Positions 43,400 to 48,553 of a DNA stretch of 64,000 nt are shown here, in pieces. The stretch is from an uncultured Acidobacteriota bacterium (GTDB lineage Bacteria > Acidobacteriota > Vicinamibacteria > Vicinamibacterales > UBA2999). Location of the stretch: assembly GCA_963789815.1 (NCBI GenBank), contig CAWBMG010000009.1, forward strand, positions 137,103-201,102, in the 5' to 3' direction. The translations under genes and the position numbers were made by a program. The notes beneath the pieces were generated by a model. The model made no database searches. It was given only the letters and a program-made list of their open reading frames with translations, and was not told the origin of the DNA. How positions within the stretch are numbered: position 1 is the stretch's first letter; each line of letters opens with the position of its first letter.

Positions 43400-43415
43400 G
43401 GCAACCCACGTGCCA
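43400..43415 (-). promoter_or_regulatory. sigma-54-like -24/-12 motif immediately upstream of ndvB-like gene
   Basis: Minus strand reads TGGCAC-GTGGG-TTGCC (GG-N10-GC). It is only about 22 nt from ATG 43379, so the predicted leader would be very short. Hence moderate confidence. Confidence 0.45.
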
Positions 43416-43514
43416 CTGGCAAATCGCTCCACGCTTGAGCTCCGGCTCTAAGCGATGTGTACTGACTGGCGTTTCTTACAACTAGCGTCGAAAGTTACAA
43501 GCCAAATCCCTGCG

Positions 43515-43904
43515 TCAATTTGCAGAATCGGCAGCGCTACGAACGGCGCGCGCAGTCTCTTCCGCACTTCTCGCCACATCGCTCGCAAGCCCCTGACCCT
43601 GGCGTAGTGCGTCGCGGTATCCGGCCTTCCCGTGCTCGACGGCTTGGGTGATCCGCTCACTGAACGCCAACGCCTTGTCACGCCCCCGCTCGATCGCCTC
43701 GGTCACACGAGGGCCGTGCTCGTCCACCAATTCGCGCCCCTTGTCGGCGACCCGACGGCTTCGCTGTGCCAGCAAGGCTCGCGTTTCGCGACCCGTGGAG
43801 GGGGCAAATATCAGCGCCGCGGCAGCCCCGGCGACCGCGCCGCATGCAAACGTAAGAAAGGTACCGACCGCTGACATAGAATCGTTTGAGTTCTCGTGGC
43901 TCAT
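43515..43904 (-). CDS. YtxH-domain protein
   Basis: The start is ATG 43902-43904 (MSHENSN). GAVAGAAAALIFAPSTGRETRALL is the YtxH signature, followed by a helical repeat region. Confidence 0.8.
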   Translation of the reverse strand: MSHENSNDSMSAVGTFLTFACGAVAGAAAALIFAPSTGRETRALLAQRSRRVADKGRELVDEHGPRVTEAIERGRDKALAFSERITQAVEHGKAGYRDALRQGQGLASDVARSAEETARAVRSAADSAN

Positions 43905-43952
43905 AGAGTGCTCCTGAAAAGGCGCGCGCTGAAGCGCACCGCTCCGACACGG

Positions 43953-43968
43953 AGCACGGAGCGTGCCA
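43953..43968 (-). promoter_or_regulatory. sigma-54 -24/-12 promoter upstream of ytxH-like gene
   Basis: Minus strand reads TGGCAC-GCTCC-GTGCT (GG-N10-GC). It lies in the 43905-44009 intergenic gap, 49 nt upstream of the ATG. Confidence 0.65.
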
Positions 43969-44009
43969 AGGCTGCTCATCGGCTAACTCCCAAGAGACCC
44001 AACTTCTTC

Positions 44010-45368
44010 CTAGACTGGCTCCTGCTTCCGGTATTCCTGGAGCCGATTGTAGAGAGTCTTGAGGCTGATACCGAGGATCTCGGCAGCCTTCGTCTTGCTG
44101 CCATCGAAATGCGAAAGCGTGGCAACTATAAGGCGCTGCTCGACATCGGCGAGCGTCATGCCCACATGAACGGGCAGGCTGTGATCGATGGGTGGCGCCG
44201 CCACGTCCGGGCTCCTCACTTCTGGAGGAAAGCAATCAGGGGTGAGATCCGTGGACGCCATGATGTAGGCGCTGTACACGGCGTTCTTGAGCTCCCGCAC
44301 GTTGCCCGGCCACGAATATTCGCGGAGCATCTTCGCCGCCTCAGGCGACAATCGCTTGTCGGCGCCCTCGCTCTCGGCGATCTGTCTGAGGAAGCGCTCG
44401 GCGAGCAGCTCGACGTCTTCGATCCGATCACGCAGGCGAGGCAGGGTCAATTGAAACACTTTGAGACGATAGAACAAGTCCTCGCGAAGCCGGCCTTGCC
44501 TGACCGCCTCGTCCGGATTGCGATTGGTCGCGGCGATGAACCGCACGTCGACCGTGAGCGGCGCCTCGCCGCCGGTGCGTGTGAAAGCACCGGTCTCCAG
44601 GACTCGCAGGAGCTTGACTTGTAGCTCCATCGGCATTTCGGTGACTTCGTCCAAGAACAGCGTGCCCCGCATCGCCTGCTCGAACACACCTCTATGTCGT
44701 CGGTCGGCACCTGTGAAACTGCCCCGCTCGTGACCGAAGAGCTCGCTCTCGATGAGCGTCGGAGACATCGCGCCACAATTGAGCGCAACGAACGGACCGT
44801 GCCTCCGCCGGCTCAAGCCGTGCAGCGTCCGCGCAACGAGCTCCTTGCCCGTGCCGCTATCTCCGGCAACGAGAACGGTCGCATTCGTCGGGGCCACTCG
44901 GGCGATCTGCTCGTAGATCTGCTGCATCCGCGCCGACGTGCCCACGAGCAAACCGAAGGACCCGCGGGTAGACAATCCCGATCGCAGCGCGCCGATCTCC
45001 TGCTTGAGACCGCGAGTCTGCGCGATGTCACCCAGGATCGTGCGTAGGCGCCCGAAGTCCACGGGCTTGGTCAGATAGTCAGACAGACCGCGCCGAAGGG
45101 CCTCGACGGCGGTATCCACGCTTGCCTGCCCGGTAATCAACACGACGGCCGGTGACGAGGCGGGATCCAATTCGTCGAGCAGGGTCATTCCTTCGCCGTC
45201 AGGCAGATGGAGGTCCAGCAGGATGACCTCAGGAGGCTGCGCTTGCAGCTGTTGTCTCGCGTCCTGGAGCGAGCGCGCGCGCGAGGTTGTAAAGCCCTCG
45301 CGCTCCACCAGTTCGGCCAGGGAAGACAACGTCTCGGAATGATCGTCGACGATCAGTGCATGCGGCAT
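44010..45368 (-). CDS. sigma-54-dependent response regulator (NtrC family: REC + AAA+ + Fis HTH)
   Basis: ILLDLHLPDGEG (REC), GDSGTGKE (Walker A), ESELFGHERGSFTGA (the GAFTGA-type sigma-54 contact loop), and the C-terminal AAEILGISLKTLYNRL (HTH). Confidence 0.92.
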   Translation of the reverse strand: MPHALIVDDHSETLSSLAELVEREGFTTSRARSLQDARQQLQAQPPEVILLDLHLPDGEGMTLLDELDPASSPAVVLITGQASVDTAVEALRRGLSDYLTKPVDFGRLRTILGDIAQTRGLKQEIGALRSGLSTRGSFGLLVGTSARMQQIYEQIARVAPTNATVLVAGDSGTGKELVARTLHGLSRRRHGPFVALNCGAMSPTLIESELFGHERGSFTGADRRHRGVFEQAMRGTLFLDEVTEMPMELQVKLLRVLETGAFTRTGGEAPLTVDVRFIAATNRNPDEAVRQGRLREDLFYRLKVFQLTLPRLRDRIEDVELLAERFLRQIAESEGADKRLSPEAAKMLREYSWPGNVRELKNAVYSAYIMASTDLTPDCFPPEVRSPDVAAPPIDHSLPVHVGMTLADVEQRLIVATLSHFDGSKTKAAEILGISLKTLYNRLQEYRKQEPV

Positions 45369-45372
45369 GAGT

Positions 45373-47423: not shown

Positions 47424-47556
47424 GCGCATTCACTGCCTGAGTCACGAACACTCGAGGCAATTCATCAGCCGGGTTGCAGTTCCTACAACCGCGGGGCGGC
47501 AAGACTGACGGCATCCCCCGTACAAGCGCCCATCTTCTTATCTGTCGGCGACTACA

Positions 47557-47572
47557 TGGCACGTGCGTTGCT
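47557..47572 (+). promoter_or_regulatory. sigma-54 -24/-12 promoter upstream of 47726..48142
   Basis: Plus strand reads TGGCAC-GTGCG-TTGCT, a perfect consensus, 154 nt upstream of ATG 47726. It is divergent from the csbD promoter. Confidence 0.7.
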
Positions 47573-47725
47573 CCCCTTGCAGATCATCTATTCGACGTTG
47601 CTCGCGATGCGAGATGCGACCACGTGGATCTCATAGTCGAAGTGGACGAGCTTGACCAACGTCGATTTCCAATGAAGGTACATTCGACTTCTCGAGAGCC
47701 TCTCTCGGGGTCGTTGTTCTAACAA

Positions 47726-48142
47726 ATGAACATTCCCCAACTCGAAGCGACAAATCTCTTTCTCGGCATCCTCGTCGGGTTGGCCATCGTGCAGATGGTT
47801 ACGCTCGTCGCCGCTGGCATCTGGGTGAAACGCGTCGTAGCACGCGTCTCACAGGTGGCGGCCTTCGAATCGCAGCGACTAGGCCCGATGGTGGGAGAGG
47901 TGCGCCAGTTAGCGAACCAGGCGCAGCATCTGATGACCGAGGTGCAATCGACCGTTCACCGAGCCAATAGGTTCGTTGACGGCATCGAGCAGCGCACCCG
48001 TCGCGCGATGGCGACCGTCGATGCCGTCAACGATCGAGTGGATTCAGTCGTGAACACCGGGTTGAACGAGGTGCACGCGCTGAAATCTGGATTGCGCCGA
48101 GGGATGAGCGAACTCGTGCGTTCGGCAAGTCGTCGTCCATAA
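47726..48142 (+). CDS. membrane-anchored helical protein (DUF948-like)
   Basis: One N-terminal TM helix (LFLGILVGLAIVQMVTLVAAGIW), then long helical repeats (VRQLANQAQHLMTEVQSTVHRANRFVDGIEQRTRRAM). This is the architecture of DUF948 stress proteins. Confidence 0.6.
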   Translation: MNIPQLEATNLFLGILVGLAIVQMVTLVAAGIWVKRVVARVSQVAAFESQRLGPMVGEVRQLANQAQHLMTEVQSTVHRANRFVDGIEQRTRRAMATVDAVNDRVDSVVNTGLNEVHALKSGLRRGMSELVRSASRRP

Positions 48143-48346
48143 TCAAGGTCGGCTCACCGCAGCGCCCGATGTTGGGGTCCACGAGGGCGGATCGCTCGCC
48201 GGGAACGAGTCGTCCAACGCCTCATCGACGCGCCGGTTTGACTCCTTCGACGGGCCTGAGAGAAGCCAAGTGACGAGCGCTCTGGCCGCGGCACCGGCCA
48301 CGGCCAGAAGCACTATACGGGTCAACGTGGTGTTGCGCATGGACAT
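48143..48346 (-). CDS. small membrane-anchored protein with [10 protein letters not shown] motif
   Basis: 67-aa ORF with one TM helix. The C-terminal [13 protein letters not shown] motif recurs in small bacterial stress-associated proteins as I recall. Its ATG directly follows the stop of the upstream 50-codon gene. Confidence 0.55.
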
Positions 48347-48499
48347 CTACGTGACCGGGCTACGGCCTTGGATCACACGGATGAGCACGACTGCCACGGC
48401 GAGGAGCAGCAGAAGGTGAATGAACCCTCCGAGGGTATAGGAACTCACCACGCCCAGCACCCACAACACCAACAAGACCATAAAGATGGTCCACAGCAT
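48347..48499 (-). CDS. lmo0937-family small membrane protein (50 aa, below ORF-track cutoff)
   Basis: Reverse translation gives MLWTIFMVLLVLWVLGVVSSYTLGGFIHLLLLLAVAVVLIRVIQGRSPVT. AAAGGAGAC lies 6 nt upstream of the ATG at 48497-48499. Confidence 0.7.
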   Translation of the reverse strand: MLWTIFMVLLVLWVLGVVSSYTLGGFIHLLLLLAVAVVLIRVIQGRSPVT

Positions 48500-48537
48500 A
48501 AAGTCTCCTTTTGTTAGCAACGCACACAGGTCTCTAG

Positions 48538-48553
48538 AGCATTGCGCGTGCCA
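48538..48553 (-). promoter_or_regulatory. sigma-54 -24/-12 promoter upstream of the lmo0937-like gene
   Basis: Minus strand reads TGGCAC-GCGCA-ATGCT (GG-N10-GC), 39 nt upstream of the ATG at 48499. Confidence 0.65.

Follow-up and report, generated by a model that had tools for sequence, protein, structure and literature searches.

The 64-kb stretch of DNA analysed here, hereafter the window, comes from a soil bacterium of the Vicinamibacterales (Acidobacteriota) and carries at least seven -24/-12 motifs of the sigma-54 type, which face small stress-type genes and a cyclic beta-1,2-glucan synthase gene and among which lie the genes of a histidine kinase and an NtrC-family activator. This promoter arrangement is real and conserved among relatives. 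The interpretation of the motifs as sigma-54 promoters driving the adjacent genes is strongly supported, because the -24/-12 elements have been kept in diverged orthologous loci and occur in approximately 10-fold excess over chance. We further consider it moderately probable that these promoters form a conserved sigma-54-dependent stress regulon of Vicinamibacterales that is run by the embedded kinase and activator.

Sigma-54 motifs in the window and in related loci

A preceding reading of the same DNA, made from its letters alone (the sequence-only reading), had listed five TGGCAC-N5-xTGC motifs in the interval 43400-48553, each oriented towards the adjacent start codon. All five are present where they had been placed and on the strands indicated, and the orientation towards a start codon holds for them and for two further sites. 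The motif cluster in that interval therefore stands, but the regulon is not confined to it, as sites reach 32210 on one side and 55629 on the other; the sixth motif (exact match 32211-32225, minus strand) lies 11 kb outside the interval and was absent from the earlier list. The seven predicted promoters are as follows (nt, nucleotides).

32210..32225, minus strand: sixth predicted sigma-54 promoter, TGGCACACCGGTTGCT, before the BON gene, with a leader of ~40 nt to the ATG at 32159
43400..43415, minus strand: predicted sigma-54 promoter, TGGCACGTGGGTTGCC (core 43401-43415, TGGCACGTGGGTTGC), 20 nt 5' of the glucan synthase ATG
43953..43968, minus strand: predicted sigma-54 promoter, TGGCACGCTCCGTGCT (core 43954-43968, TGGCACGCTCCGTGC), before ytxH and 42 nt past the activator stop codon
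47408..47423, minus strand: predicted sigma-54 promoter, TGGCACGACCAGTGCT (core 47409-47423, TGGCACGACCAGTGC), before csbD
47557..47572, plus strand: predicted sigma-54 promoter, TGGCACGTGCGTTGCT (core 47557-47571, TGGCACGTGCGTTGC), matching 8/8 scored positions, before the DUF948-like gene
48538..48553, minus strand: predicted sigma-54 promoter, TGGCACGCGCAATGCT (core 48539-48553, TGGCACGCGCAATGC), before the DUF5670 and SFPASDPP genes
55614..55629, minus strand: seventh sigma-54 motif, TGGAACGCCCGTTGCT, before a 28-amino acid (aa) membrane peptide and the SYLF/Ysc84 lipoprotein gene

The genes behind them are the following.

31617..32159, minus strand: OsmY-like BON-domain lipoprotein gene, 180 aa, with a signal peptide (Pfam BON, 6e-28)
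34835..43379, minus strand: cyclic beta-1,2-glucan synthase gene of the NdvB/Cgs type, frameshifted near 36324-36334
43515..43904, minus strand: YtxH-family gene, 129 aa (Pfam YtxH PF12732, 2.6e-13, 50.6 bits against a cut-off of 37.5)
47088..47318, minus strand: CsbD/YjbJ-family gene, 76 aa (Pfam CsbD PF05532, 4e-19, 68.7 bits against 40)
47726..48142, plus strand: gene of a DUF948-like membrane-anchored coiled-coil protein, 138 aa (resemblance to the Pfam family only)
48143..48346, minus strand: gene of a protein bearing the SFPASDPP motif, 67 aa
48347..48499, minus strand: gene of a DUF5670/lmo0937-family membrane protein, 50 aa (Pfam, 1e-13; NCBIfam lmo0937_fam_TM)
54738..55448, minus strand: SYLF/Ysc84 lipoprotein gene, downstream of the seventh motif
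55497..55583, minus strand: open reading frame (ORF) of 28 codons for an unannotatable membrane peptide (MKYGIAWLLGVPFGLVVLWFAANQVGCG), with a good ribosome-binding site

The exact pattern TGGCAC-N6-TGC matched six times in the window against 0.47 matches expected; six was not reached in any of 100 dinucleotide shuffles. Strong sites were defined by a 16-position score that required GG and GC and a match at seven or more of the eight other consensus positions; seven were found against 0.485 expected, with a maximum of four among 200 shuffles. The GG-N10-GC spacing is strict at all seven sites, within a TGGCAC-N5-TTGCW consensus, and each site is followed at 18-155 nt by a start codon in the same orientation (7/7). 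None of the seven is intragenic when gene starts are placed by ortholog gene calls, ribosome-binding sites and Pfam coordinates. Four motifs fell inside ORFs with a crude longest-ORF caller; this was judged an artefact of upstream in-frame start codons, and the shorter gene calls were preferred because all three of these lines of evidence back them. A scan of 43300-48800 for sigma-70-type promoters, with a consensus that may not suit Acidobacteriota, came up empty, so that a sigma-70 alternative gains no support.

For the comparison with relatives, we used contigs carrying activator orthologs at 61-87% identity (loci L081-L088, L118 and L119) or CsbD orthologs (L115-L117). These close relatives were reached by exact-protein look-ups, the activator orthologs in Genome Taxonomy Database (GTDB) species representatives being only 57-58% identical or less; among the matches listed, the named proteins most similar to the activator and to CsbD belong to metagenome-assembled genomes (MAGs) of Vicinamibacterales. 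The related loci (231,305 bp) contain 19 strong sites against 1.8 expected (~10-fold), 16-17 of which lie upstream of a co-oriented gene in a tally against called genes. Across 28 collected sites, the GG, A-22, T-14 and the GC at -13/-12 are invariant.

The association with particular genes is likewise conserved. A co-oriented motif precedes the DUF5670 gene in 7/7 loci (the window, L088, L083, L084, L087, L115 and L119), and in a MAFFT alignment of five diverged DUF5670 upstream regions (A1), TGGCAC-N5-xTGC is the sole conserved intergenic block. The same holds for YtxH in 3/3 loci (the window, L088 and L115), where the 16-mer of L088 is identical to that of the window and L115 has TGGCACGCGGCGTGCT. 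The glucan synthase gene follows a motif in three of four loci, the window, L081/L082 (TGGCACGTGAGTTGCC) and L115 (TGGCACGGGGGTTGCG), with diverged flanks in the two relatives; the motif is absent in L088. In the three lineages with the motif, it lies 18-20 nt from the start codon (window 43379-43415, L081 11413-11451, L115 8084-8118). The DUF948-like gene has a co-oriented upstream motif in four of five loci (present in the window, L088, L083 and L115) and CsbD in three to four of four (the window, L115 with TGGCACGATTGCTGCT and L116 with TGGCACAGCAGGTGCA; weaker in L117). The SFPASDPP gene stands after the DUF5670 gene in L088, L083 and L115 and has its own sigma-54 promoter motif in L081. 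The densest case is L115 (GCA_021731165.1), with six motifs in 2.5 kb, in the order synthase, YtxH, DUF5670, DUF948-like, CsbD and a two-helix membrane protein.

Beyond this set, BON homologs with an upstream GG-N10-GC motif occur in L002, L001, L116, L118 and the L104 group. Motifs stand before the Ysc84 gene in L118, whose gene order is BON-REC-Ysc84-ferritin, and before ferritin-like, BON and outer-membrane protein (OMP) beta-barrel genes in the L104 group. In more distant loci, DUF1328, BON and PLD-like genes lie behind sigma-54 motifs in Binatia (L001), as do, in Acidobacteriota (L002), an otsA-like gene and a BON gene that is next to the activator gene on its downstream side; a Burkholderiales locus (L027) has DUF1328 followed by CsbD. 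The labels DUF1328, PLD-like and otsA-like were assigned by eye from translated sequence rather than by profile search. By translation, the sigma-54-like motif at L002 7353-7368 (plus strand) precedes a putative trehalose-6-phosphate synthase gene and that at L001 11975-11990 (plus strand) a putative phospholipase D/cardiolipin synthase gene, both of which would represent classic osmotic-stress functions.

Three further motifs of the window are weaker or degenerate.

56310-56325, minus strand: weaker motif (6/8), facing the ferritin-like gene 55806..56267
56352-56367, plus strand: weaker motif (6/8), facing the AI-2E transporter gene, back-to-back with the preceding one
46557-46571, plus strand: degenerate TAGCAC-N5-TTGC (TAGCACGTTTGTTGC), with AG for the near-invariant GG, 26 nt before a receiver-only gene

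In L104/L097, a strong motif (TGGCACATCGGTTGCT) accompanies the ferritin-like ortholog, and AI-2E genes lie downstream of co-oriented sigma-54 motifs in L081 and L088. Genes of DUF892, ferritin-like stress proteins of the YciE/YciF type, are present repeatedly in related clusters (L084 12833-13429, L087 20638-21048, L116 8938-9360, L117 9031-9618 and L081 21103-21359), where upstream GG-N10-GC matches are weak only (score 4-5).

The embedded kinase and activator

The signalling genes of the window are the following.

44010..45368, minus strand: NtrC-family enhancer-binding response regulator (REC, AAA+ with GSFTGA, HTH_8), the activator
45373..46452, minus strand: cognate histidine kinase (HATPase_c and HisKA in Pfam)
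46597..47028, plus strand: stand-alone receiver-domain protein (Pfam Response_reg, 2.1e-17)
48685..51639, minus strand: hybrid PAS histidine kinase/receiver (Pfam)

The activator shows what is expected of an enhancer-binding protein, namely a phospho-acceptor aspartate, Walker A and B motifs, a GAFTGA-type loop and a Fis-type helix-turn-helix: D52, GDSGTGKE, GSFTGA, LFLDEV and a C-terminal Fis-type helix-turn-helix were read in its sequence, and Pfam reports Sigma54_activat (5.7e-69), Response_reg (1.8e-23) and HTH_8 (9.4e-15). No other Sigma54_activat protein is encoded in the window, as the sequence-only reading had said. All NCBIfam equivalog models examined for it (AtoC, NtrC, ZraR, PEP-CTERM regulator, GlrR and others) remained below cut-off, the best being AtoC (413.5 bits against 714; NtrC 384 against 559, ZraR 343 against 760). 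A GSFTGA loop is also listed for the Desulfovibrio vulgaris activator DVU3220 (PMC4641369). The kinase is predicted to be soluble, with no obvious membrane segment in its sequence, and its N-terminal ~130 aa have no Pfam match.

Control of the promoters by this activator had been proposed from their proximity in the window. Activator orthologs (57-92% identity, the lowest at 57-62%) were found in or beside promoter clusters in L081/L082, L083, L084, L088, L119, L118, L001 and L002. The kinase-activator pair is kept in L081-L088, L118 and L002; in L119, only a 72-aa gene directly precedes the activator gene. In five lineages (the window, L081/L082, L088, L119 and L002), a motif lies 42-180 nt past the activator stop codon, and the gene that follows this motif varies by lineage among YtxH, glucan synthase, DUF5670 and BON. 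The proposal has the recurrent synteny of the pair with the promoters in its favour; L115, L085 and L086 depart from it in ways considered below. The case for the embedded pair as the putative regulator of these promoters is one of conserved synteny only.

The hybrid PAS kinase is a possible accessory sensor; in L081, L085 and L086, the gene of a similar hybrid kinase lies upstream of the pair. Receiver-only genes recur in the related clusters L104, L116, L117 and L118, and a branched phosphorelay could be formed by the hybrid kinase together with the receiver-only protein. Upstream of the receiver-only genes in the L104/L097 cluster is the sequence CGGCAG-N5-GTTGCT.

Two regions of the window are candidates for activator binding (no strand assigned).

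43470..43502: candidate activator-binding region, TTACAAC-N12-TTACAAG, containing TGTAAGAA on the minus strand
47472..47490: 19-bp near-palindrome GGTTGCAGTTCCTACAACC, a candidate shared enhancer, containing TGTAGGAA

The TTACAAC-N12-TTACAAG arrangement upstream of the synthase promoter is kept in L115 with a different spacer. The near-palindrome is centred between the divergent promoters of csbD and the DUF948-like gene, at about -86 and -100 from their predicted starts; in an alignment of the window with L115 (A2), a central block between these promoters is kept, the near-palindrome partly. In the window, L115, L116 and L117, divergent promoter pairs enclose an element TGTARGAA. It has six matches in 4.1 kb of the regions from -30 to -180 and four in 53 kb of non-coding DNA elsewhere, a ~20-40-fold enrichment upstream of sigma-54 motifs that is to be read with its post hoc definition from four of the six matches, the other two (L116 and L117) being independent. 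Several promoters do not have it, and TGTARGAA is a candidate activator-binding element only.

Other searches were less productive. With one mismatch allowed, k-mers shared by 15 upstream regions were no more frequent than in shuffled sequence, inverted-repeat scans of six upstream regions gave one weak palindrome only, and five aligned DUF5670 upstream regions contained no conserved block beyond the -24/-12 elements. An expectation-maximization (EM) motif, GTnAGTCTTGCCGC, exceeded the likelihood of a mononucleotide-shuffle null; it was not relied on, because several occurrences fall in coding DNA that is homologous, namely the 3' ends of the activator and hybrid-kinase genes. The palindrome GTTGYAG-N3-CTRCAAC occurs once and, with three mismatches, matches at chance level. 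In L088, the intergenic region between YtxH and the synthase (9306-9360), which has no sigma-54 motif, contains repeated GTTACAC/GTACAAC/GCACAAC units that resemble the TTACAAC repeats which the window and L115 have before the synthase promoter.

Proposed regulon, rival explanations and known systems

The gene content is consistent with a general or osmotic stress regulon with unusual wiring, as the OsmY-like BON, YjbJ/CsbD, YtxH, ferritin-like and cyclic-glucan families and, in distant loci, the otsA-like and DUF1328 genes fit such a role. Judged from the gene products alone, the signal would most plausibly be osmotic, desiccation or envelope stress. Such a cue would be sensed by the soluble kinase 45373..46452, with possible input from the hybrid PAS kinase and the stand-alone receiver protein, and the soluble kinase would phosphorylate Asp52 of the activator. 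The phosphorylated activator would oligomerise on sites ~80-130 bp upstream, with TGTARGAA candidates at 47472-47490 and 43470-43502. A -24/-12 promoter strictly needs an ATP-hydrolysing activator; sigma-54 RNA polymerase complexes parked at the seven or more promoters would be opened through ATP hydrolysis by the activator. The units so transcribed would comprise one or two genes each, namely BON, glucan synthase, YtxH, CsbD, DUF948-like, DUF5670 with SFPASDPP, and the 28-aa peptide with SYLF; the ferritin-like protein and the AI-2E transporter are probably also units of the regulon. The predicted outcome is a tight, all-or-none co-induction of small, separate protective genes together with periplasmic cyclic-glucan synthesis. 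More tentatively, and with doubt exceeding confidence, we propose that in Vicinamibacterales, perhaps also in other Acidobacteriota and in Binatota, these genes are under no dedicated stress sigma factor, and that the members of a core osmotic/desiccation general-stress regulon use per-gene sigma-54 promoters under a single switch made of one PAS-less soluble kinase and an NtrC-type activator.

Several observations weigh against a stress regulon run by the embedded pair. The stress roles of CsbD, YtxH, DUF948 and lmo0937 are known from Firmicutes and Escherichia coli and are carried over here, and the window contains no copy of rpoN. A tblastn search with the intact L081 ortholog shows that the synthase reading frame changes from -3 to -1 at 36324-36334; the gene is thereby split into ORFs of 2354 and 451 aa, while in L081 and in L115 the ortholog is one ORF of ~2840 aa, and the frameshift is either an assembly error or a sign of a pseudogene. 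The predicted start of the synthase promoter gives a leader of ~10 nt without GGAGG, and because the promoter is only 18-20 nt 5' of the start codon, the mRNA may be nearly leaderless or its start site atypical. Most metagenome BON homologs, at least 15, have no motif; those at 63-69% identity (L089-L095, L100, L105, L109 and L111) are without one, unlike the L096-L106 subgroup, which suggests that sigma-54 control of BON genes is lineage-specific or that the motif-less homologs are paralogs. L115 keeps its six promoters with no kinase or activator gene inside the cluster or within 10 kb on one side, the fetched flanks of the activator orthologs L085 and L086 (79-82% identity) are devoid of motifs, the TGTARGAA element was defined post hoc, and unbiased k-mer and EM searches yielded no robust shared dyad.

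The findings on L115, L085 and L086 also speak for a rival explanation, in which the promoters are genuine but fired by at least one different enhancer-binding protein whose gene lies elsewhere in the genome, the embedded pair being a passenger, a regulator of only one or two neighbours, or one of several inputs. There is no convincing common binding site across all seven promoters, Acidobacteria usually encode many sigma-54 activators, and at least 7,980 activator-like proteins at E <= 1e-60 are among the matches listed. Nevertheless, the pair recurs in the cluster, the motif past the activator stop codon is found in five lineages with differing next genes, and no second activator is encoded within the 64 kb; we regard this explanation as rather unlikely, but as one to be taken seriously. 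A narrower programme under the same mechanism in place of a general stress response, devoted for instance to envelope or periplasm remodelling around cyclic glucan or to a dormant, desiccation-resistant resting state, would suit the location of most products in the membrane, periplasm or outer membrane (BON, SYLF, DUF5670, YtxH, DUF948-like and the AI-2E transporter) and the additional OMP beta-barrel and Omp85-like proteins of relatives. It accords less well with CsbD and the ferritin-like protein, which are cytoplasmic and typical general-stress outputs, and it appears unlikely to us, more so than the involvement of other activators. Such a programme would agree with the view that cell-envelope functions are commonly under sigma-54 (PMC4551910). 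The unusually short leader of the synthase would also be understandable if the motifs were chance matches or sites of an unrelated regulator. This is highly improbable in view of the counts (7 against 0.49 expected in the window, 19 against 1.8 in relatives), the strict GG-N10-GC spacing, the uniform orientation, the conservation amid diverged flanks, and the invariance of T-14 and of the GC at -13/-12 in 28 sites.

A stress regulon of the favoured kind would share features with several known systems. In ZraSR-ZraP of E. coli and Salmonella, as in the window, a kinase and a REC-AAA+-HTH_8 regulator are combined with sigma-54 promoters, and a small stress-protective gene lies beside the regulator genes, divergent arrangement included. 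ZraR and ZraS rank high in the NCBIfam comparison, among the best matches, yet far below the cut-offs (343 bits against 760 and 97 against 479), and the window differs in having at least seven promoters and CsbD, YtxH, BON, DUF5670 and glucan synthase as outputs; ZraS is a periplasmic metal sensor, whereas the kinase of the window is predicted to be soluble. In the PspF/psp phage-shock system, sigma-54 and an activator likewise drive small membrane-stress proteins, but PspF lacks a receiver domain and is regulated through the binding of PspA, and the cluster in the window contains no Psp family genes. The outputs overlap those of SigB of Bacillus and Listeria, RpoS of E. coli and EcfG-PhyR of Alphaproteobacteria: CsbD/YjbJ, YtxH, YtxG-type DUF948, lmo0937, OsmY/BON and ferritin/Dps-like proteins, and DUF892 and DUF1328 in relatives. 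The recurring stand-alone receivers also recall the single-domain regulators that belong to the alphaproteobacterial general stress pathway. By contrast, SigB, RpoS and EcfG are sigma-70-family factors under partner switching or proteolysis, and here each gene has a -24/-12 promoter.

The synthase resembles NdvB/ChvB/Cgs of Rhizobiales and Brucella, with full-length homology to the solved synthase 8rf9/8rf0, but the window gene has a putative sigma-54 promoter at a distance from the start codon conserved in three lineages. To our knowledge and in the literature searched, sigma-54 control of a cyclic beta-1,2-glucan synthase has no precedent. In Borrelia burgdorferi, sigma-54 transcribes rpoS, and RpoS drives the regulon (PMC4014564, PMC1976401). 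This Rrp2-RpoN-RpoS pathway similarly has a receiver-domain enhancer-binding protein and sigma-54 atop a stress or adaptation regulon; here, the stress genes themselves bear the sigma-54 promoters. The two-component enhancer-binding protein DVU3305 of D. vulgaris has targets described as 'general stress response, transmembrane transport' that adjoin its own gene (PMC4641369); it belongs to a different phylum, has a GAFSGA loop and serves one or two operons, compared with at least seven promoters here. That paper mentions neither CsbD, BON nor osmotic functions, and a cross-phylum survey of sigma-54 regulons (PMC12316311) mentions neither Acidobacteria, CsbD nor glucan. The literature searched for sigma-54/RpoN with CsbD, OsmY, BON, YtxH, DUF948, lmo0937, Acidobacteria and general stress does not describe this wiring. 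Sigma-54 stress modules as such are already known (Psp, ZraSR-ZraP, Rrp2-RpoN-RpoS and DVU3305); what appears to be new is that a gene set typical of SigB, RpoS and EcfG, together with a cyclic-glucan synthase, would have its own -24/-12 promoter per gene in Acidobacteriota.

If the single-switch proposal made above for Vicinamibacterales is true, it would represent a fourth general-stress-response architecture alongside SigB, RpoS and EcfG-PhyR and, for cyclic beta-1,2-glucan synthesis, the first instance of control by sigma-54. Acidobacteriota are among the most abundant soil bacteria, and hardly any work exists on how they regulate survival under drying, rewetting and osmotic shock. A conserved sigma-54/activator switch would exemplify a stress-protein toolkit re-wired to a promoter class that is tightly off without its activator. 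It would provide a compact, testable regulatory model for the classic small stress proteins (CsbD, YtxH, OsmY-like BON, lmo0937-type peptides and ferritin-like) and the glucan synthase, its sequence signature would let the stress regulon be predicted from MAGs, and uncharacterised small families (SFPASDPP proteins, DUF5670 and the 28-aa peptide) would gain a regulatory context.

Products of the genes behind the promoters

The YtxH, CsbD and lmo0937 identities assigned in the sequence-only reading all exceed the Pfam cut-offs. For the DUF5670/lmo0937 protein, the scores are 51.5 bits against 23.5 (Pfam) and 53.5 against 30 (NCBIfam lmo0937_fam_TM), and the best NCBIfam match of the csbD product is the YjbJ model. 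Membership of 47726..48142 in DUF948 (PF06103) was not confirmed, with 22.3 bits against a cut-off of 37.2, and three of four orthologs score 19-22 bits. The leader of this gene is ~143 nt (47583-47725), compared with about 25-55 nt in L088 and L083, and a terminator-like hairpin with a T-run at 47690-47720 directly precedes its ATG. The folding of the 143-nt leader is no better than that of shuffles (z = -1.6), and no Rfam match was found in it or over the whole window.

The earlier assignment of a cyclic glucan synthase behind the motif at 43400-43415 was correct: the protein is of the NdvB/Cgs type and matches PDB 8rf9/8rf0 with 1380 bits over residues 64-2321. Pfam identifies Glycoamylase, GH94 supersandwich and GH94 catalytic domains, the last in the next ORF. 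The homology is full-length, with the glycosyltransferase, glucoamylase-like and GH94 phosphorylase regions of an NdvB/Cgs protein present, and the frame is broken. Cyclic glucans serve hypo-osmotic adaptation in Rhizobiales and Brucella.

In place of the SFPASDPP pair that had been reported, the window has one such gene. The family has no Pfam or NCBIfam model. The motif is invariant in the window, L081 (8616-8822), L088 (5717-5914), L083 (7735-7947) and L115 (~8928-9135), and a search of 1.84 billion representatives gave 233 matches at E <= 1e-3, many of which are 60-250 aa long and contain the motif two to three times. The product of 31617..32159 matches BON in two stretches (97.4 bits); OsmY is its best NCBIfam match, at 68.5 bits against a cut-off of 174, and on these scores it is a BON lipoprotein resembling OsmY rather than an OsmY ortholog.

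The 28-codon ORF separates the SYLF lipoprotein gene from the seventh sigma-54 motif. Between the DUF3617 and SYLF genes, a long inverted-repeat region with repeated CCCAACTCC/GGGAGTTGG units (54620-54730) may be a terminator or a repeat element.

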